Source of the DNA: Pirellulales bacterium
GTDB taxonomy: Bacteria > Planctomycetota > Planctomycetia > Pirellulales > PALSA-1355
Reading direction: 5' to 3'
DNA length: 64,000 nucleotides
Assembly (NCBI GenBank): GCA_963733035.1
Contig: CAVTBU010000005.1
Coordinates: 1-64,000, forward strand
The notes under the pieces were generated by a model, which searched no databases, had not been told where the DNA came from, and saw only the letters and a program-made list of their open reading frames with translations. Below are positions 8,301 to 48,408 of the stretch, piece by piece. Positions within the stretch are counted from its first letter, which is position 1. Each line of letters begins with the position of its first letter. A program made the translations under genes and the position numbers.

Positions 8301-11300
8301 TCAGGCTCTGGAATTTGCCCTGAAAACCTTCTGTCAATCACTCGGCATGCTTCCCGACCGTGTGATTCAGGATGACCAAAAACGCCTTTTTTATCGATTG
8401 GCGAACGAGTTGGTACGTGCTCCGCTCCCACCGGCGGAGCTGGTGTTCCATGAGCACTTTGATGAGCTTCGGCAAGTTTTAGGTGATCGGCCGGCGCTTC
8501 TAAAGGCAAAGAATGAAGCATTTGCAGCACTGGTCGCACGCTCATTCAATCCCGCGCTCATTGATCGAATTGACTTGGAAAGTGTGGAGCGGGAATGGAC
8601 AGCGGCCTCTATGTCCTTCTGGCCGCTCTCTGCTTGGAAAAAGTGGAAAGCTCTAGCGAAGATCAAGGCTTATATGAACGCCTCCGGCTACGTTCAGCCT
8701 GATGTCGATCTGCCATTGCTTCGCGACTACGTTGATTCCTGCAAACGAGTTGCAGAGAACCTGGTTTCACTTAATGTTTCGCCTCAACTTAAGGCATCTG
8801 TCGGAAAAAACACGACTGCGCTGGACGCTCCCCTTCAAGCCGCCTCACGATTGCGCGAAGTCATTCATGCTGCGGGGCTTACGCCCTCGGAAGTAGGAAG
8901 GGCGGCGCGTGGTGAACTTGCTCCGTTGATTGCCGCAGCGCGCGCTCTGTTTCCTCCGGGCGCGAATCCGAAAGCATTCGCGTAAAGCTTAAGGAGAATC
9001 TTGCGGCTCTCGTCCTGTCACCTGTACAACGCGCTGCCGTGGAACGACATGCGCGTGCTCTCTCGCACCAGATCAATTCAGCAACCAACATCCGCGAAGC
9101 CATAACTGCACTGGGCGTTTCTCGCGAACTCCTCTCGCATTCGCTGCAGCATATTCTAACCGCCCCCCAAGTTACCCGCTGCGAATGGGCGGCGGGATGT
9201 TGCCGATTGGCCAAGGCGTTCCAAGAGGCATGGAAGTCGTATACGCAGCACGCGATCGCAGTACCTGCCGATATACGATCGCCTTCAATTCTTGCTGATG
9301 CGGCTGCCCAAGCACGGCACGTGATTGCACGTCGCACTTCGCTGAGACAATGGACGGCTTGGATAGCGGTGCGCAATCGAGCAGCGCAGTTGGGGCTATC
9401 AGCATTCGTCGAGGCGCTTCAATCCGGCGAGCTAAGTGCGTCAGACATCATGTCCCGTTTTAGGTTAGCCTACGGTCGGTGGTGGCTACCGAGTGCCATT
9501 GACAGCCGTGAGCCACTACGGAAATTCCAACGATTCATTCACGAGGATGCCATCAGCGACTTCCGCAGCTTGGATGACCTTGCCCGTAAGGCTGCGGCTC
9601 CTCGGGCTCGACATGCAATTCTGCACGGTTTGCCAGCAAGTCACCAGGTTCCGCGGAAGTCCGAATTGGGGCTCCTGCGTCACCAAATGAGTCTAAAGCG
9701 TCCGAGTAAGTCGATCCGGGAAATGATCGGAGGAATGCCAGAATCATTTGGGAAGTTGGCGCCCTGTCTATTGATGTCGCCGCTGTCCATCGCGCAATAT
9801 TTGCCCGCCGACCAGGCACAGTTCGATGTCGTCGTGTTCGACGAGGCATCGCAAATTGCAACCTGGGACGCAATCGGTGCGATTGCTCGCGGCAAGCAGA
9901 CGATTATCGTTGGCGATCCGAAGCAGCTTCCCCCCACCAACTTCTTTGGCAAGGCTGATAACGACGAGGACAATGAAGAACTCGAAGACCATGAGAAAGA
10001 TCTGGAAAGCATACTAGATGAGGCCCAAGCCTCGGGCCTACCCACCCTGCAACTTAATTGGCACTACCGCAGCAAACATGAATCACTGATCGCCTTTTCA
10101 AATTGGCATTACTACGGTAACCGCCTCGTAACGTTTCCGGCGGCGGAGTCGATTGACCGAGGCGTGTCACTAAGGCTTGTCGAAGGAGGTCTTTACGATC
10201 GCGGAAAGAGCCGCACAAATCGCGAGGAGGCCGATGCGATTGTTGCGGATCTTGTCGAGCGAATGAAACGTTCTTTGAGTCAACCCGAGTCGCAGCGGCC
10301 CACATATGGTGTGGTGACCTTCAATGGTCAACAACAAGACTTGATTCAGGACTTGCTCGACGAAGCGCTTCGCCAACACCCGGAACTGGAATGGTTCTTC
10401 GCCGAAGAGCGTATTGAGCCGACACTGGTTAAGAATCTGGAGAACGTACAGGGCGACGAGCGAGACGTCATGATGTTCTCGATAACATTTGGATTTGACG
10501 CCGCCGGAAAATTCCCAGTCGACTTTGGTGCGATCAATCGCGATGGTGGTGAACGTCGACTTAACGTAGCCATCACGAGAGCTAGGCAGGAACTCGTGGT
10601 CTTTTCGTCGTTTCTGCCTGAGCAGCTTGCAGCCGAGAGGGCCAAGGGACGTGGCGTCCGCGACCTCAAGGAGTTCTTAGAATACGTCCAAAAGGGTCCC
10701 GAGGCGATTGTCGCCAGGGTCGAAGGGTCCTTGGGTGGGTTTGACTCGCCACTCGAGGAAGCAATTGCGGGCGCACTGGAATCCCACGGTTGGCAAGTTG
10801 AAACCCAAATCGGCGTTTCTGGCTTCAGGATTGACCTGGGAGTTCTTCATCCCGACAAACCAGGCAGCTATTTGGCCGGCGTGGAGTGCGATGGCGCCAC
10901 CTATCACCGTTCCGCAGTTGCTCGCGATCGTGACAAGATTAGACAGCAAGTGCTGGAAAACCTCGGATGGAGTATTGTTCGAGTGTGGTCCACGGACTGG
11001 TGGTATGACCCTGATACTGCCACTGAGCAGCTCGATTCCAAGCTCAACGACTTGCTGGACCGATCCCGCAATAAGGAGTCAGCGACTGAACCGTCTACTT
11101 GTTCTGATCGGTCCGAGATCTCAGCGGCCCCAAATGGAGAGACTAGTGATCTTGAAGTTATCGGTCGGGAACCTGACGATTCCGGTCATATAAGTGCCAA
11201 TACCGCTGCAGTAGTGGCGGTGTCAGAGGAGGCGACACTACGTCCTCAACTATTTGCGAAACATACGCCCAAAAAAGAACACCGTTTCTATTCGCGTGTC

Positions 11301-40221: not shown

Positions 40222-41238
40222 ATGGCAGTGTGGTTAGTTCGGGCAGGGAAGCACGGCGAGAACGAACAGTCAGCCATCGAGAACAAACTCGTCACCATTG
40301 GTTGGAATGAGTTGTCCGACCTATCGCCGTTCCAGAGCCGAGAGGCATTGACCGACCTCTTCGTGCAGGCTCATCCGAACGACTCGAAGCCCAAGGTTTC
40401 GAATGAGGTCGGGCAAATCTGGGCTTTCCGTGGAAGGATTGAGGAAGGTGATCTGGTTGTCCTGCCGCTCAAGACCCAATCGGCGATTGCCATCGGCAGG
40501 GTCGCTGGACCATACAACTACCGAACGGACCTCGGCGATTCCGTCCATCACACTCGAAGCGTCGAGTGGTTGAAGACCGACTTGCCTCGAACGACCTTCG
40601 ATCAAGACATCCTGCATTCGTTCGGCGCATTCATGACGGTTTGCCAGATTAGTCGCAACAATGCGGAGGAACGAATCCGAGCAATCATTGGCGGAAAGTC
40701 TCACCCAGGTGGAGGGAGCAAGTCAGACGACGAGCCAGAAGATGAAACCGAATCTTCGCTCGACATCGAACAAGCCGCCAAGGATCAAATTCTCAATCAC
40801 ATTCAAAGCAAGTTCGCTGGACACGCACTTGCCAGAATTGTTGACGCAGTTCTTCAAGCCGAAGGATACTTGACCCGTGTTTCACCTCCTGGTCCCGATG
40901 GTGGCGTAGACATCCTCGCAGGCACTGGACCGATGGGCTTCGGAGAACCGAGACTTTGCGTGCAAGTCAAATCATCTTCGTCACCCGCCGATGTGAACAT
41001 CCTGCGTGGTTTGCAAGGCATTCTTCAGAATTTCCACGCCGACCAAGGTTTGCTCGTCTGCTGGGGTGGGTTCAAGACCTCAGTGCTTCAGGAAGCCCGC
41101 CAGAGTTTCTTTACGATTCGTCTATGGGATTCTGGCGACCTCCTCGCAGCGATCCTGCGTAACCACGACAAGTTTCCCGACGAACTTCAGGCAGAGTTAC
41201 CCTTGAAACGGATTTGGGCGTTGGTGTTAGAGGACTAG
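40222..41238 (+). CDS. Mrr-family restriction endonuclease
   Basis: WLVRAG N-terminus; PGPDGGVDILA...CVQVKS (D-QxK). Confidence 0.88.
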   Translation: MAVWLVRAGKHGENEQSAIENKLVTIGWNELSDLSPFQSREALTDLFVQAHPNDSKPKVSNEVGQIWAFRGRIEEGDLVVLPLKTQSAIAIGRVAGPYNYRTDLGDSVHHTRSVEWLKTDLPRTTFDQDILHSFGAFMTVCQISRNNAEERIRAIIGGKSHPGGGSKSDDEPEDETESSLDIEQAAKDQILNHIQSKFAGHALARIVDAVLQAEGYLTRVSPPGPDGGVDILAGTGPMGFGEPRLCVQVKSSSSPADVNILRGLQGILQNFHADQGLLVCWGGFKTSVLQEARQSFFTIRLWDSGDLLAAILRNHDKFPDELQAELPLKRIWALVLED

Positions 41239-41246
41239 GAAATCAA

Positions 41247-42211
41247 ATGGCAAACAACCTCTCCGAAATTGAAAAACGGCTCTGGGAATCGGCGGACCAA
41301 CTGCGTGCCAATTCCAACCTCAAATCGTCCGAGTACTCGGTGCCGGTGCTCGGGCTGATCTTCTCTGCGCTACGCCGATCACAAGTTCTCCATCGCCGAG
41401 CAGGAACTGGCGGGCAAGGGGTCGGGGCGGCGAAAGATCGGCAAGGCGGACTATCAAGCCCAAGGCGTGATGTATCTCCCGCCCGAGGCTCGCTTCTCAA
41501 AACTGCTTGAACCTGCCCGAGGGAGAGAACATCGGCAAGGCGATCAACGAGGCGATGAAGGCGGTCGAAGCCGAGAACGACGAACTGAAAGGCGTCCTGC
41601 CGAAGACGTACACCAGGATTGAGAACTCAACACTAGTCACGCTGCTGAAGACGTTCTCGCAGATTCCGATGGACATCGAGGGCGATGCCTTTGGGAAAAT
41701 CTACGAATACTTCCTCGGCAATTTCGCCCGTGCCGAAGGTCAGAAGGGCGGCGAGTTCTTCACGCCCACCTCACTTGGTCCGGCTCATCGTCGAGATCAT
41801 CGAACCCTATCACGGTCTGATCTTCGATCCCGCCTGCGGATCGGGCGGCATGTTCGTTCAAAGTGCCGATTTCGTCAAAGCACATAAGAAAAGTCCCAGT
41901 GCCGAGATTTCCATCTACGGTCAAGAACGGGTGGACGAGACTCGACAACTTTGTCTGATGAACCTCGCCGTCCATGCCCTGTCGGGCGAAATCCGTGAAG
42001 GCAACAGTTACTACGAAGACTTGCACAAAAGCGTCGGCAAGTTCGACTTCGTATTGGCTAATCCGCCGTTCAACGTGTACAAGGTGGACAAGGAGAAGAT
42101 CAAGGACGACCCTCGGTTTCCGTTTGGGATGCCACGGGCGGACAATGCCAACTACCTGTGGATTCAATTGTTCTACAGCACCTTGAACGCCAAAGGTCGC
42201 GCGGGCTTCGT
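41247..42211 (+). pseudogene. hsdM: Type I R-M methyltransferase HsdM, frameshifted and 3'-truncated
   Basis: [33 protein letters not shown]; homology stops at GRAGFV; no hsdS or hsdR follows. Confidence 0.88.
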
Positions 42212-42447
42212 TGGAGTTCCCCCCGTGAAATGAACCAGTGCGAAAATGGTGAGGCCACTATTTCTTGATATGCGATTTGGGCGAATACCGTACGTGACCA
42301 CATTGCTGAAGCAACTCGACTCATCCGACACGGCGGCGCACTGACGCGACTCGGCTTCTGACCCACGCACACAGTAGTTTGTCGGCATTCTCCGAGGTCC
42401 AGAGCTTGTTCGATCCGTTCCAATAAGGACACTTGGAGTAGTCGGCA

Positions 42448-43251
42448 ATGAATCGAGACAAAGAACGCTTCTACCACGCCCAAGCCGCAAAGCTAGATCG
42501 GAGACGCAAATGGCAATGTATGGTGGTTTTTCCCCTAGTCGCCCGATTTGGCGATCTTGTGCGTATTGAGCTCGAATACCAACACGGCAGATTCAAAATC
42601 GATTTGTATATTCCGGCGCTGAAGCTTGCGGTTGAAGTTGACGAGCCATTTCATAGCCGACAAGAGGAAGCCGATGCACGGCGGATGACATGCATCGAAT
42701 CGGAACTCGGCTGCGAGTTTACCCGTATAAAAGTCAATAATGTAGCCGGTGTCTATGGCCAACTCGACGACCTCTGCCAGGAGATTGAGCGACGGCTAGC
42801 TGAGCTCTCCTTGGAAACGTGGCAACTTCCAACTCGCAGCCGAATCCGTCGTGAGTCCTCGTCAGCCGGCTACAGCGACGGAAACCTCCACGAGCTAGAA
42901 CAAAGCGGGATTCCAGCTCGTGTCAGCGAGATGAGACTAGACCTGGAGTCTCTCCAAATCGACGTGATTGACGACTTGGGGCCTGTAATCCCCGGAAACG
43001 GCGAGCTCGGATTTTCGGTCGCCATGCCGGGAATTAAGTTCTGCATTAGCATTAGGTCAAACGGCCAGGCGAAAGTTCTGGTGACTGACTACTTGGAGCC
43101 AGCTCTGAAATCGTTGGGAATCACACTAGACGGACCCAAGAAAGGGCGGGTGCCATATTGGGTAATCAACGAGCTTCGTGGCCGATTCGACATCGAGGTG
43201 CTCACAGGCCGGCTGGCAACATTTCATCAAATACTGCAAGACTCGCTGTGA
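42448..43251 (+). CDS. AbaSI/Vsr(DUF559)-like endonuclease domain protein
   Basis: EYQ...IDLYIPALKLAVEVDEPFH...DARR. Confidence 0.65.
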   Translation: MNRDKERFYHAQAAKLDRRRKWQCMVVFPLVARFGDLVRIELEYQHGRFKIDLYIPALKLAVEVDEPFHSRQEEADARRMTCIESELGCEFTRIKVNNVAGVYGQLDDLCQEIERRLAELSLETWQLPTRSRIRRESSSAGYSDGNLHELEQSGIPARVSEMRLDLESLQIDVIDDLGPVIPGNGELGFSVAMPGIKFCISIRSNGQAKVLVTDYLEPALKSLGITLDGPKKGRVPYWVINELRGRFDIEVLTGRLATFHQILQDSL

Positions 43252-43344
43252 CCAGTCCACCAAATGCGCCACGAGAACCATCATGGATTCGCAACTGTAG
43301 GCAACGTGCGAAAGTGCGTACAAAAAGACGTTTCCAATCGGCCG

Positions 43345-43640
43345 GGGGAACGTCGAGGTCATCACGGCCGGCACGAACGACGGCCTGGAGCTGCCCGTGT
43401 GGCTTCGCGCGTCAATCGTCCGCCGCCAGGCGTAGAACGCGGACTCGGTCAGCCGCTCACGCTTGCAAAACGCCCGGACACTTAACCCGCTCGCCACAAA
43501 GCGCCTGAGCATGTCGCGCCAAAACCGTTCCTTGCTGGCATCCCGTCGCATGTTCGCCATCGACCACCTCCAAAGTTGAGGTAGCCCCAGCTTGACCGGC
43601 TACGCCCACCGGCAGAAGATGCGGTTGGCGGAACGGACAC
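43345..43640 (-). mobile_element. IS66 left-end remnant with truncated tnpA
   Basis: IR GTGTCCGTTCCG at 43640; FWRDMLRRFVASGLSVRAFCKRERLTESAFYAWRR, near-identical to tnpA at 47434-47769. Confidence 0.85.
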
Positions 43641-43689
43641 GTTTTAGTCGTGAGCAAACCGGAGTCGCATTAAGCACAAAAGGGCATTA

Positions 43690-44358: not shown

Positions 44359-44739
44359 GCAGCCCCATTACGCCGGGCCAGCCACTGACAAAGATTCGTT
44401 GGGCAATGACCTTGCCCCTAAGTTTGATCCACTTGGAACGCTAGAGAAACAAGGTTTTCAAGGGGGGCATGCCCCCCTTGAAAAATTCGCGAACTCGACC
44501 GGCGATCGGTCTCCCAGCGCACTGTGGGGCCGATGCTGGTTGTAATCTTTCCGCCAGGCCTCGATCACGTCCTGGGCGTCTTCGAGCGACAAGAACCAGT
44601 GCTGGTTCAAGCACTCTTGCCGGAACTTCCCATTGAACGATTCGATGAACGCGTTGTCCGTGGGCTTGCCCGGCCGGCTGAAGTCGAGCTTCACGCCGTT
44701 GAAGTAGGCCCACCAATCCAATGACTTCGAGACAAACTC

Positions 44740-45198
44740 GTGTCCGTTCCGCGGACCACAGCCACACGCCCGCTCGGGGCCCGTGGGCCGGTAAGCGGTC
44801 GAGATTTTGACCCCGCGAACGCAGGCGGCGCGATCCGGAATCTGACGACGGATCGTATTCGGATCACACATCGCGGCGTCGATTACGCCGAGGGCCACTT
44901 GTCTCGCTTCGGGGCTGATGCCCCCAATCAGGCGATGGTTCAGCGGCTCAGAGGCATCGCAGATGGCAAGATTCGACCGACACAAGCGGACCTGAACTTC
45001 TACAGCCACGAGTTGCGAGAGTCGGTGCGATACCGCAATCTCGGCTATCGAACTGGTCAGCCACCAGGAGAAGCCGGATGGGATCTTTGGAACAACGCGC
45101 ACTCCGCTACACTAGAAGATTATCGGCTTCCCGATTTCGATGTGAATGGCAGTCGAACGTTGTACCATCCAGATACTTGGCACTTGTTCGAACAGTAG
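44740..45198 (+). CDS. Headless polymorphic-toxin C-terminal domain (IS66 passenger)
   Basis: FDPANAGG...HLSRFG...FYSHELRESVRYRNLG...WNNAHSATLEDY...LYHP, recalled from Rhs/pyocin-like toxin tips; no internal RBS. Confidence 0.7.
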   Translation: MSVPRTTATRPLGARGPVSGRDFDPANAGGAIRNLTTDRIRITHRGVDYAEGHLSRFGADAPNQAMVQRLRGIADGKIRPTQADLNFYSHELRESVRYRNLGYRTGQPPGEAGWDLWNNAHSATLEDYRLPDFDVNGSRTLYHPDTWHLFEQ

Positions 45199-45209
45199 TG
45201 AGATTCTCG

Positions 45210-45467
45210 ATGGATAAGTTTCATGAGCAGCTATTGCGATCTATTGGTAAACACGACGGAGAGTGGACGTGGTACCAACTGGACCGCGTAATCAATTCCG
45301 CTGAATTACCGAACGGGACGAATCTCATGACCCTGTTGAAGGAGTTGAAGTCCGCCGGGTTGATCAAGGAAGGACCTGGTCCGAACTCGTCTCAACCAAC
45401 CTATTTCATCACGGCCGACGGCGTGGCCGTCCTTCAGGGAGTCGACGCCAACACTGAATCAGAGTGA
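45210..45467 (+). CDS. Putative immunity protein, winged-helix-like, 85 aa
   Basis: 11 bp after the toxin stop; DGEWTWYQLDR...LKELKSAGLI...YFITADG. Confidence 0.6.
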   Translation: MDKFHEQLLRSIGKHDGEWTWYQLDRVINSAELPNGTNLMTLLKELKSAGLIKEGPGPNSSQPTYFITADGVAVLQGVDANTESE

Positions 45468-45480
45468 ACAGCGAACCGGA

Positions 45481-47054
45481 TCAGTTCGTAGTCAACTCCG
45501 CTTCAGCTTCCTGTTTCCACACGTGGGGCAGGAACTGATCGAGTTCGTTGGCTGGCGTCGTGCCAATCTTGGCCAGGACGCTTGTGAGATAGCGCTGCGG
45601 GTCGACGCCGTGCCGCTCGGCACTGGCGATTAGTGACCAGAGCCGCGCGTGGTTCTCACCCGCCGCGTCGTTGCCAGCGAAGAGCCAGTTCTTGCGGCCG
45701 ATGGCCACGCGATTGAGCCCCGCTCGCTGGCGTTGTTATCGATATTGAGGAAGCCTTGCGTGGTGTACGTCGTGAGCGGCGTCCACTGGTTCCTGGCGTA
45801 AGTGATCGCCGTGGCCGTTGGGCTGCGCGGCAGCACGACTCCTTGTTCGGCGTCGAGCCAGGTCTTGATGCGCGCGAGCACCGGCAGGCTCCGCTCCTGG
45901 CGTAGAGTTAGTCGTGTGGCGGCATCGGCGCCCTTCGCTTCCCGCTCGATCGCGTATAACTCACCGATCAGCGCAAGCATCTGCGCGGCGCGTTGTTCAT
46001 CCGAGTCCTGAGCATCGTAGAACTTGCGGCGCGCATGTGCCCAGCAAGCGACTTCCGTCACGTTCTGCGAATGAAAGATGCCGTCGTATCCGCCGTAAGC
46101 GTCCGCTTGCAGGTAGCCGGTGAAGTTCTTTAGCCACTTTGCCGGGCCGTCGCGACTGCGGCTCGGCGTGTAGTCGTACACGGTGTACGGGTTGGCCTCG
46201 TCGCCCAGGTAGCACCAGATGCGGCCCTTGCGGCATTGCTTCTGACCGGGCGACTGGACTGGCACAGTCGTGTCGTCGGTATGAATCACCCGCGATTGCC
46301 GCACGCGCTCAATCATGAGATCAACCAGCGGCGCGACCAACTCGCCGGCACAACGCATCCAGGCGCACATCGTGCTGCGAGCTACATGAACCTTCTGCCG
46401 CTCGAAGATGCGTTCGAGCCGGTAGAGCGGTAAATGGTCCCCCAGCTTACTGGTGATGACGTACGCCAACAGGCTCGGCCCCGGCAGGCCCTTGTCGATC
46501 GGCTGTTGCGGCTTCTCTGCGACGGCAATGTGCGGGTTGTAGCCGTCGTGGTCACACTTGGCACAGGCGTACTTGTGACGCACGTGCCTCAAGACTTTGA
46601 AGCTGGCCGGGAAATATTCCAGTTGCTCGCTAATTTCCGCCCCGATCCGGCAGCGCTCGCAACCGCACGCGGGGCAACGCTTATCGTCGAGGTCGTGCTC
46701 GATCTCGATCCGCTCCAAGTACTCCGGCAGTTGCTGACGACCGTGCTGGTCGCGGTTCTTGATGCGACGAGTGACGAGCCGCTCGCCGGCTTCCTCTTCG
46801 ATGCTTGCCTGGTCGAGCGGAGCGTCTTCAATGCGCCGGCCAAACAGCAAGAGCTGTCGTGGATCGAACGACTCGCTGCGCGGACCGTAATAGCGACGCA
46901 AGATGGCAGCGACCGCCGCCTTAACAGCCTCGTCGATCGCGGCCTGCTGTTCTGCTTTGAAGCGTTCGGCCTCCGCCTCGCGTTGACGACGTTCTTCGAG
47001 AATCAGCCGCTTCAATGCTTCCACATCGTTCGGCAGTTCGTCGGTGCGCGTCAT
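45481..47054 (-). CDS. tnpC: IS66 transposase TnpC (frameshift near 45710)
   Basis: CPACG, HLPLYR, HTDDT, QADAY, CWAHARRKF, IDNNASER, GRKNWLFAG. Confidence 0.95.
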
Positions 47055-47107
47055 GCGTCCTGTTGTACCGACTGCCTGCCGGTCGCGCTAGTCCAAGTGA
47101 CGATGAA

Positions 47108-47437
47108 TCAAGCCACGCGAGTCGCCTTGACGTCGAGTCCCGAGAGTAATCGCAACAGTTGCTCGCGCGTGATCTCGATGGCCGGCTTGCCTGTACGCGG
47201 GAACTGGAACTCGCCCCGTTCCAGCCGTTTGTAGTAAATCGCCAGACCATCCCGGTCCCACCACAGAATCTTCACAAGATGCCCGCCTCGGTTGCGGAAC
47301 ACGAACAGGCTGCCCGAGAGCGGATCGTGGCCGAGAAACTCGCGCACCACTTCCGCGAGCCCGTCAAAACTCTTCCGCATGTCGATCGGCGTGGTGGCGA
47401 CCCAGTCCTGCAAGTTCACCAGGTCCGCGGCAATCAT
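47108..47437 (-). CDS. tnpB: IS66 accessory protein TnpB
   Basis: DMRKSFDGL...FVFRNR...KILWWDRDG...KRLERGEF. Confidence 0.95.
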   Translation of the reverse strand: MIAADLVNLQDWVATTPIDMRKSFDGLAEVVREFLGHDPLSGSLFVFRNRGGHLVKILWWDRDGLAIYYKRLERGEFQFPRTGKPAIEITREQLLRLLSGLDVKATRVA

Positions 47438-47769
47438 CGCCCGACTCGCGTCTGCAGGGCAATGACTAGATCGGCCAGCTGCTCTGTTGCACTCGGGCCT
47501 GAAAGCCGCAACACGCAGCCGCCGGCAAGGTCGATCGCAATGGACGATTCGCTGCGCGGCGGCGTCGTCATAACGGCCGGCACGAACGCCGGCCCGGCGT
47601 TGCCCGTGCTGCTCCGCTCGCCAATCGTCCGCCGCCAGGCGTAGAACGCGGACTCGGTCAGCCGCTCACGCTTGCAAAATGCCCGGACACTTAACCCGCT
47701 CGCCGCAAAACGCCTGAGAACCTCACGCCAAAAATCCTCCTTCGCCGGGTCTCGTTGATGTCGCGCCAT
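47434..47769 (-). CDS. tnpA: IS66 accessory protein TnpA
   Basis: FWREVLRRFAASGLSVRAFCKRE..SAFYAWRR; ATGA overlap with tnpB. Confidence 0.9.
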   Translation of the reverse strand: MARHQRDPAKEDFWREVLRRFAASGLSVRAFCKRERLTESAFYAWRRTIGERSSTGNAGPAFVPAVMTTPPRSESSIAIDLAGGCVLRLSGPSATEQLADLVIALQTRVGR

Positions 47770-48408
47770 CGCTGACCTCCTGGTTCAGAAAACCAGAAGC
47801 TTGACGCGCCACCGGGTGAGCAAGAAGATGCGGATCACGAAACGGACACACAAACTCCGGTCCGTTGTCCACACGGATCGTCATCGGCAAGCCACGCTCG
47901 GCCGTGACCGTCTCCAAAACCTTCACCACATCGTCGCCGCGGAACCGCTGGGCAGCCCGAGCGGCCAAGCTCTCACGACTAAAGTTATCGACTAACGTCA
48001 GAATCCGAAAGCGCTGGCCTTGGAACAACTGGTCGGCCATGAAGTCCATGCTCCAGCACTCGTTGGTTCCTTGGGCTACCGGCCGCTCCATGCGAACCGC
48101 GCAGCTCTTGCGGCGTTTCGGATTCCTGCGACGCATCAGCAGCCCTTCCTCGACGTACAGGCGATAAACCAGCTTATGATTCACTTGCCAGCCCTCTCGT
48201 CGTAACAACACCGTCAGCCGCCGATGGCCGTAGCGAACCCGACTGGCTGCCAAGTCGCGTAGCCGGATCCTCAGTGCAGCCCGCTCGTCGCGCACACTCT
48301 GGTAACGATGACTCGAACGTGGAGCCCGCAGCACTTCGCAAGCTCGTCGTTCGCTCACCCGGTAGCCCACTTGCAGCTTCTCCACCACAACGCTTCGCCG
48401 AGCGGGCT

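Follow-up and report, generated by a model that had tools for sequence, protein, structure and literature searches.

An IS66-family element with a start-less toxin tip behind its terminal repeat points to in-frame grafting of polymorphic-toxin tips by transposition

We analysed a 64,000-nucleotide stretch of a Pirellulales bacterium genome (GenBank assembly GCA_963733035.1, contig CAVTBU010000005.1, positions 1 to 64,000 of the forward strand), here called the window, which contains an IS66-family insertion sequence carrying a two-gene cassette at its right end. The element spans window positions 44740-47849 (3110 bp) and has terminal inverted repeats at both ends: GTGTCCGTTCCG begins at 44740 on the plus strand, with GTGTCCGTTTCG as its minus-strand counterpart, ending at 47849. 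The features of the locus are as follows.

44458..44739, minus strand: C-terminal part of an interrupted IS3-family transposase gene (rve_3, E 3e-30)
44732..44739, no strand: left copy of the target-site duplication, ACAAACTC, identical to 47850-47857
44740..44761, plus strand: right inverted repeat (IRR), about 22 nt, GTGTCCGTTCCGCGGACCACAG, which also codes for the first 7 residues (VSVPRTT) of the toxin frame and starts the cargo open reading frames (ORFs) of relatives
44740..45198, plus strand: start-less toxin C-terminal domain of 152 codons, assigned from homologs, alignments and an AlphaFold2 model
45210..45467, plus strand: putative immunity gene, 85 amino acids, assigned from conservation of the locus, weak PadR matches and a predicted complex
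45481..47054, minus strand: tnpC, IS66 DDE transposase (PF03050, PF13005, PF13007, PF13817), convergent with the cargo and frameshifted at about 45717-45720
47108..47437, minus strand: tnpB, IS66 Orf2-like (PF05717, E 1.3e-34)
47434..47769, minus strand: tnpA, small helix-turn-helix protein of IS66, with a weak HTH_Tnp_1 match and homologous to the tnpA of relatives
47828..47849, minus strand: left inverted repeat (IRL)
47850..47857, no strand: right copy of the target-site duplication, ACAAACTC, identical to the left copy
47850..48388, minus strand: N-terminal part of the same IS3-family transposase gene (rve and HTH_21)

TnpC matches DDE_Tnp_IS66 (E 3.2e-85) together with zinc-finger, leucine-zipper and C-terminal domains in Pfam, and TnpA scores 18.6 bits against HTH_Tnp_1, under the cut-off of 24.1. 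The TnpC domains, the presence of TnpB and TnpA, and the repeats with their 8-bp duplication all place the element in the IS66 family, where it belongs to a Planctomycetota subgroup whose repeat begins GTGTCCGTTCCGCG. Comparison with an intact relative by tblastn revealed that the tnpC reading frame switches at 45717/45720. In a public groundwater sequencing run (X1), the right end of the element (44740-44842, with one difference) is joined at exactly 44740 to another flank, implying that this boundary is real and that the element has moved.

The cassette sits where about 100 bp normally part the right repeat from the tnpC stop. In its first ORF (44740-45198) the frame is uninterrupted from base 1 of the element (GTG TCC GTT CCG CGG) to the TAG at 45196-45198; upstream it is closed by an in-frame TGA at 44722, six codons before the element. 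All three forward frames of the repeat are free of stops. The second gene begins with ATG at 45210 and has its stop at 45465-45467, and the tnpC stop codon follows at 45481-45483. The original prediction, made by a model from the sequence, had fixed the limits of the element by its inverted repeats and duplication, and had described an inward-reading two-gene cassette between the right repeat and the tnpC stop, with a first frame open from base 1 and an 85-residue gene beginning 11 bp later and ending 13 bp before the tnpC stop. The coordinates, the identical ACAAACTC on both flanks and the junction in X1 agree with that description on every point.

When bacteria fight on contact, their main weapons are polymorphic toxins (Rhs, contact-dependent inhibition (CDI), PAAR, LXG and others), whose C-terminal toxic tips are swapped by recombination with silent cassettes. 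With the 152-residue domain as query we found 123 homologs, 69 of them 83-266 residues long and 54 of 267-2000 residues. Pfam families precomputed on the 54 longer proteins include RHS_repeat, TEN_YD-shell, PAAR, PT-HINT and PT-TG. The domain lies at the C-terminus in the longer homologs that we inspected (P0070, P0071 and P0092), and in a short relative (P0008) the end of a HINT domain (...GVLVHN) immediately precedes it. Because it is C-terminal in proteins with RHS/TEN_YD-shell, PAAR, PT-HINT and PT-TG delivery domains, these comparisons argue that the 152-residue domain is a genuine polymorphic-toxin tip.

Conservation sets in at about residue 10 (RPLGARGP...), and seven of the nine preceding residues are encoded by the repeat. 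In an alignment of 30 sequences D84, H90, L92, R93, E94, R97 and Y98 are invariant; in one of 83 sequences the invariant residues are G29, D84, H90, R93 and E94. AlphaFold2 predicted a five-helix bundle (predicted local distance difference test score, pLDDT, 93.3) with the first 12 residues disordered. Neither the 152-residue nor the 85-residue protein fell into a family in Pfam (E 0.01) or NCBIfam (E 1). When the toxin model was compared with the PDB by Foldseek, nothing was returned at E <= 0.001. A wide VIA-align search gave a best Z of 4.4, with a root-mean-square deviation of 2.5 over 64 residues, which is not proof of a new fold, and a PDB profile search gave a chance match only (E 0.15). 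Searching the ESM Atlas with the toxin returned unnamed clusters, one of which has Pyocin_S on 37% of its members. Across the phylum, a sample of 401 genomes yielded the toxin in 3, the host included, and relatives of tnpC there are at most 50% identical. Near-identical pieces of the toxin and immunity genes are present in plant and soil metagenomes. In addition, a 164-nt, adaptor-flanked contig from a soil metatranscriptome is 96% identical to 44979-45120, a match that shows neither transcription of this element nor its context. A promoter scan found no plus-strand site.

We then considered the second gene of the cassette. Of 160 related loci in genomes and metagenomes, 131 have a homolog of the 85-residue protein immediately after the toxin, mostly at -10 to +35 nt from the toxin stop. 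The protein is of winged-helix (PadR-like) type with a W-x-W-Y-Q-L-D-R motif; a word-index search with it retrieved one relative only, and in the family as gathered from toxin loci 30 of 55 members gave weak PadR matches. A complex of the two proteins was predicted with an ipSAE (interaction prediction score from aligned errors) of 0.90 against 0.51 for the best control. That mark is attained by 116 of the 157 complexes with solved structures and by 2 of the 215 mismatched pairs. Separate runs had at least 78% of contacts in common, with a partner pLDDT of at least 88, and the predicted interface joins the W-Y-Q-L-D-R motif to toxin residues 57-60, 106-118 and 131-133. Since it follows the toxin in most loci and is predicted to bind it, the 85-residue protein is, on the evidence of gene order and modelling, the predicted cognate immunity protein of the 152-residue domain. 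In Microcoleus and other cyanobacteria (L075, L080-L082 and L086) the toxin is a free-standing protein of 132-141 residues with its own ATG, and the immunity homolog in these loci gains about 80 residues at its C-terminus, as a fusion or by running on into an extension (160-residue ORFs).

Only two of the 160 toxin loci also hold IS66 genes, both in the same convergent layout. One, in an Isosphaeraceae metagenome-assembled genome (L008), is a 3155-bp element whose tnpC is 64% and whose toxin is 78% identical to those of the window. The other, on the Adhaeretor mobilis chromosome (L009), has an internally deleted tnpC, 78% identical, and a toxin 76% identical. A right-end fragment with the same toxin family was found in a fourth genome (L252, G427). 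Among these same-toxin elements the repeat-to-toxin junction is homologous at the DNA level; the spacer of L009 is 10 nt shorter, which puts the toxin in phase 3, so that the repeat reads VRSAN, not VSVPRT. Synonymous sites are saturated among the three copies (proportion of synonymous differences, pS, 0.55-0.87). The ratio of nonsynonymous to synonymous substitution (dN/dS) is 0.05-0.12 for the toxin, equal to or below the 0.08-0.35 of the transposase genes, and the immunity proteins are only 34-46% identical. Identity between the window and L008 falls from 87% in the N-terminal part of the toxin to 61% in its C-terminal third, where the predicted interface lies. The low dN/dS despite the saturation indicates that the tip has stayed functional for a long time. 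A quick family tree (140 columns) shows the element-borne toxins as a grade that encloses other tips, which does not settle whether the toxin was captured once or repeatedly. Two structural details were seen in these copies. At L252:301-951 (G427:C36) the segment for toxin residues 61-144 is inverted and the immunity gene intact, with no transposase genes within 4.7 kb. Outside the true ends of the A. mobilis element, about 83 bp from each, lie two further repeat-like ends (5910 on the plus strand, 8648 on the minus strand; L009:5900-6000 and 8560-8650), giving an interleaved structure.

The same repeat also precedes tips of other kinds. We scanned 300 genomes of the order of A. mobilis for the repeat and examined 30 returned loci together with 42 further regions; a reversed-pattern control indicated that part of the matches with two mismatches are due to chance. 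Elements with this repeat, with a tnpC 66-83% identical, carry other start-less ORFs that run from base 1 (VSVPRT...) or base 3 (VRSA(N/D)...) of the repeat and are followed by a small ORF. The cargos of these relatives are as follows.

L241/L242 (G551): 147-residue DddA-like deaminase (PF14428, 32.8 bits, cut-off 25), then an Imm1 ORF (PF14430, 25.9 bits, cut-off 22.4)
L243/L244 (G551): 163-residue domain with 356 representative homologs; among the top 150 listed, it lies mostly at or near C-termini, in proteins of up to 5944 residues
L240 (G551): 123-residue domain, no independent support
L245 (G524): 132-residue domain, no independent support
L250/L251 (two more copies in A. mobilis): 114-residue domain, no independent support
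L246 (G573): HNH-like tip (weak HNH matches) behind a nested IS4-type element

Counting the fusion loci described below, ten distinct tips in nine genomes all begin directly after the repeat of about 22 nt, in phases 1 and 3 only. They always read inward from the right repeat, and several of the cargo ORFs hold no ATG at all. Identical cargo was found at different sites in three cases (L241/L242, L243/L244 and L250/L251). Cargo-less IS66 relatives measure 2.4-2.7 kb, with 39-164 bp from the tnpC stop to the right end; one with the present repeat (L256) is 2563 bp long.

Two further observations concern the ends of these elements. A distant IS66 (L173, G125:C191; tnpC 43% identical) has 854 bp between the tnpC stop and the right repeat and encodes there, as judged by eye, an inward tyrosine-recombinase-like protein, so the right end seems to be a general cargo site in IS66. 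An IS4/Tn5-type element, or its end (TTTCAATTACCC...), lies directly after nt 18 of the IS66 repeat at at least eight loci in several genomes (L246:301-2100 in G573, L210, L259, L267, L269, L271, L276 and L281), as if it targeted the repeat. The copy in L246 encodes a 479-residue transposase with Tnp_DNA_bind, DDE_Tnp_1 and Dimer_Tnp_Tn5 domains.

If a tip lacks a start and the repeat is open, insertion in the right phase should yield a fusion, and one locus (L260, G432) has this arrangement. An Rhs gene here contains a complete 3405-bp element with an intact tnpC frame of 587 codons, bordered directly at each end by the 7-bp repeat CCGCGCC. The upstream part carries RHS_repeat (E 9e-63), with a core that ends DPSGL, and the linker reads ...GLGAG|VRSANPTP... 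in phase 3 through the repeat into a 103-residue tip. A small ORF and then the convergent tnpC follow. Past the left repeat, the original phase runs into a Tox-REase-7 domain (62.7 bits). Read in this way, L260 is the predicted event, in which a new tip would have been grafted onto the Rhs protein and the old one displaced as an orphan.

Two more fusions stand on one short contig (L261, G650), where two solo right repeats in the same orientation are read through from 74 and 138 upstream codons. The upstream frames share a 17-residue linker, identical at 12 of 17 positions, and lead into two different tips, one of them LHH/colicin-DNase-like by a weak match; no transposase gene is left. At the protein level, a 293-residue PT-TG protein (P0070), 75% identical to the window toxin, reads ...LVGLAG|VRSANRPLGG..., in which VRSAN equals the peptide encoded by the repeat of L009. 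Long ORFs across repeat-like matches with two or three mismatches (L220, L222, L237 and L239) look like ordinary genes that cover such a match by chance, and were not counted as fusions.

Because the tips are start-less throughout, lie at a fixed place behind the repeat and in one case complete an Rhs gene, we consider in-frame grafting of toxin tips by transposition the best explanation of how this lineage works, with a probability of about 70%. The element would transpose together with its cassette, whose frame starts at the first or third base of the repeat and whose small gene is a putative cognate immunity gene in the present family and Imm1 with the deaminase. On landing in the right orientation and phase in the linker before the tip of a secreted polymorphic toxin gene, translation would pass from the host gene through the repeat (as VSVPRT in phase 1, or VRSA(N/D) in phase 3) into the new tip. 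The delivery protein would gain a new warhead and the matching immunity gene would come along, with the old tip and its own immunity gene pushed past the element as an orphan. Copies that land elsewhere would be silent reservoirs, the window copy among them.

Much of this had been anticipated from the window alone. The toxin-tip-like domain indeed ends proteins with known delivery domains, and the gene called immunity-like recurs downstream of it and is predicted to bind it. The variable right-end cargo expected of related IS66 elements was found behind the same repeat, as start-less tips with a small gene in phase 1 or 3. A copy fused in frame to Rhs also turned up in L260, with its flanking 7-bp repeat and displaced Tox-REase-7 tip. 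Transposon-driven delivery of tips is accordingly supported for the lineage by the variety of start-less tips and by this graft. Overall, the cargo is real, mobile and under selection.

Several observations weigh against grafting. An open frame across a G+C-rich repeat of 18-22 nt is expected by chance, so that its significance comes from the relatives and not from this copy alone. Of 16 DNA contexts examined at cargo right ends, 13 are unfused, with the toxin frame closing 0-23 codons upstream: the window, run X1, G401, L009, L240-L245 and L250-L252. A further 20 regions contained no additional fusion. In L260 the frame of the Rhs gene changes twice, some 1.5-1.8 kb upstream of the junction; as the contig comes from a metagenome-assembled genome, sequencing error and decay are indistinguishable here. 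For neither G650 fusion does the upstream part fall into a Pfam family, and in the first a stop closes the frame 74 codons upstream. In P0070 the repeat is deduced from five residues of protein sequence, and this protein alone, among the 123 homologs of the window toxin and the 150 listed for the L243 cargo, has the repeat-encoded peptide inside it. No target-site consensus was visible among the flanks, which makes in-frame landing in a toxin gene look accidental and rare, not targeted. Finally, grafting leaves unexplained why tips are under purifying selection although most copies are silent.

The unfused majority could instead mean that the cassette merely hitchhikes: a toxin/immunity pair would have been captured and kept for protection against neighbours or as an addiction module, and the fusions would be by-products. 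Free-standing toxins of about 132-141 residues with their own ATG and an immunity gene do exist in cyanobacteria and others, and the distant IS66 with an unrelated tyrosine recombinase shows that the same site can hold other cargo. Toxin-antitoxin pairs are also reported on Tn3-family transposons in the accessible part of 10.1101/848275. However, hitchhiking does not account for ten different tips that are all start-less and directly behind a 22-nt repeat. An addiction toxin needs its own start, whereas nothing at the end of the element could serve the phase-3 tips as a start codon, and several tips lack an ATG throughout. The toxin dN/dS of 0.05-0.12 indicates selection on the toxin too, not on the immunity gene alone, and the Rhs graft, with its flanking repeat and its Tox-REase-7 tip displaced in phase, also speaks against hitchhiking. 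We therefore regard hitchhiking as unlikely.

It is less likely still that the tips are expressed by the element itself, either by an outward promoter at the left end acting across abutted ends (in a circle or tandem) or by read-through from the flank, with the GTG at base 1 as start, which would tie expression of the pair to transposition. Phase-1 tips do begin with GTG. Of 11 left ends compared, the 10 that belong to cargo-bearing elements (among them L246, which has a nested IS4) have in common an outward AGCTTGAC-N17-(A/G)AAGAT motif about 45 nt from the element tip as well as an ATG 22 nt from it. The consensus promoter scan, however, does not report the motif, which could equally be no more than a binding site for the transposase. 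To read from the ATG into a tip, the junction spacer would have to be 2, 5 or 8 nt long for phase 1 but 0, 3, 6 or 9 nt for phase 3, so that one junction cannot serve both classes; we dropped the ATG as a toxin start across a circle junction for this reason. Phase-3 tips, moreover, have no start at the end, and no circle junction was seen among the contigs compared. Copies of the left-end motif lie at window 47790-47849 and in L008, L009, L240, L241, L243, L250 and L246.

That the cargo is a chance open frame, which G+C-rich DNA commonly yields, or the product of a mis-set boundary is refuted by the 123 homologs with conserved residues, the confident fold model and the conserved partner gene on the one hand, and by the target duplication and a second insertion site at the same boundary on the other.

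Grafting can be taken a step further, to a reading on which we are evenly divided: that this IS66 subgroup is a natural C-terminal gene trap and warhead shuttle, with a repeat translatable in two phases, tips slotted behind it by an implied dedicated loading route, and silent copies that form a mobile armoury. If so, transposition would arm Rhs and other delivery proteins with horizontally acquired tips, and would also generate the orphan cassettes and transposase remnants long noted at polymorphic-toxin loci.

The window copy itself lies antisense within the IS3 transposase gene, and its cargo is single-copy in the host genome. Neither an RHS repeat nor a PT-TG domain was found in that genome (92% complete); besides the 43358-43640 fragment and one decayed copy, on another contig, it shows no further element with this repeat. 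With a closed upstream frame, a frameshifted tnpC and a host in which neither an Rhs nor a PT-TG gene turned up, this copy is probably a dead, stranded cassette; that it is probably silent had been supposed in the original prediction from the TGA at 44722. A sister IS66 copy in the host (C6, 83% identical) was set aside for comparison because it is decayed and has no recognisable repeats.

The surroundings of the element hold further mobile DNA. A perfect palindrome of 15+15 nt (TTTTCAAGGGGGGCA/TGCCCCCCTTGAAAA, 44455-44484), terminator-like on the minus strand, lies just past the end of the IS3 transposase gene. The neighbouring stretch 41200-43650 is a graveyard of mobile and defence genes. 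Here, a frame at 41214-42233 with a ...NPPF... motif, which we take to be of methylase type, is broken over several ORFs; a 267-residue ORF gives weak DUF559/PvuRts1I-like matches; and a truncated second IS66 is present, as follows.

43358..43640, minus strand: left-end fragment of a second IS66 of the same subgroup (IRL and 5' part of tnpA), outside the cargo element

How does this element compare with known systems? According to the ISfinder description, canonical IS66 elements carry tnpA, tnpB and tnpC between terminal repeats and make an 8-bp duplication. The window element is alike in its three genes, repeats and duplication, and differs in having 741 bp of inward cargo between the right repeat and the tnpC stop and a repeat that itself lies within a coding frame. 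Orphan toxin/immunity cassettes downstream of rhs and cdiA genes were reportedly described by Poole et al. 2011 and Koskiniemi et al. 2014. As in those cassettes, a start-less tip with its immunity gene would stay silent until joined to a delivery gene, and the replaced tip would stay downstream. Orphan Rhs/CDI cassettes, however, keep a stretch of the conserved upstream region of the main gene, through which they can recombine with it by homology, whereas the window cassette has no such homology (only 7-9 repeat-encoded residues), lies within a transposon and would be joined by transposition. In a type II toxin-antitoxin module the toxin has a translation start of its own and the pair is an autonomous operon. 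GTG at base 1 could start the phase-1 tips, the phase-3 tips of relatives have no start, and the plus strand showed no promoter-like site.

In the literature, a 2012 survey (PMC3482391) ascribes the diversity of tips to recombination with standalone cassettes in the part available; in the first 300,000 of its roughly 358,000 characters, 'transposon' is absent and 'transposase' occurs once, in another context. Accessory genes inside the repeats are a feature shared with the toxin-antitoxin pairs on Tn3-family transposons (10.1101/848275) and with an IS66-family element associated with fosZ (PMC12888890). In the accessible text of these sources the passengers are complete, with their own starts, whereas the window passenger is incomplete and would be completed by the insertion target. 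The mobile CDI locus of Burkholderia thailandensis places polymorphic-toxin genes on a transposon (PMC6350997), and there, as far as the available part of the source goes, a whole delivery system moves, whereas the IS66 lineage would move an exchangeable tip and its immunity gene only. A 2025 preprint (10.1101/2025.10.01.679605) reports, in the portion available, an enrichment of mobile elements, IS66 among them, in the vicinity of some PT-TG toxins. A full-text literature search, with subscription journals and the ISfinder IS66 literature outside its scope, returned no description of toxin tips inside an insertion sequence, nor of a natural TnphoA-like counterpart.

An insertion sequence that carries a tip with its antidote gene, and that completes a toxin gene by landing in it, would be a concrete and testable vehicle for the movement of tips between genomes, with a possible bearing on why orphan cassettes so often adjoin transposase genes. 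At least seven tip-like domains without a Pfam match, the five-helix domain of the window among them, come with it. In design it resembles TnphoA, a translational-fusion transposon engineered as a laboratory construct, of whose type we know of no natural bacterial counterpart. As in TnphoA, the frame is open through the transposon end, so that in-frame insertion would give a hybrid protein, and the IS66 lineage described here may be a rare natural case of a transposon end built to be translated.

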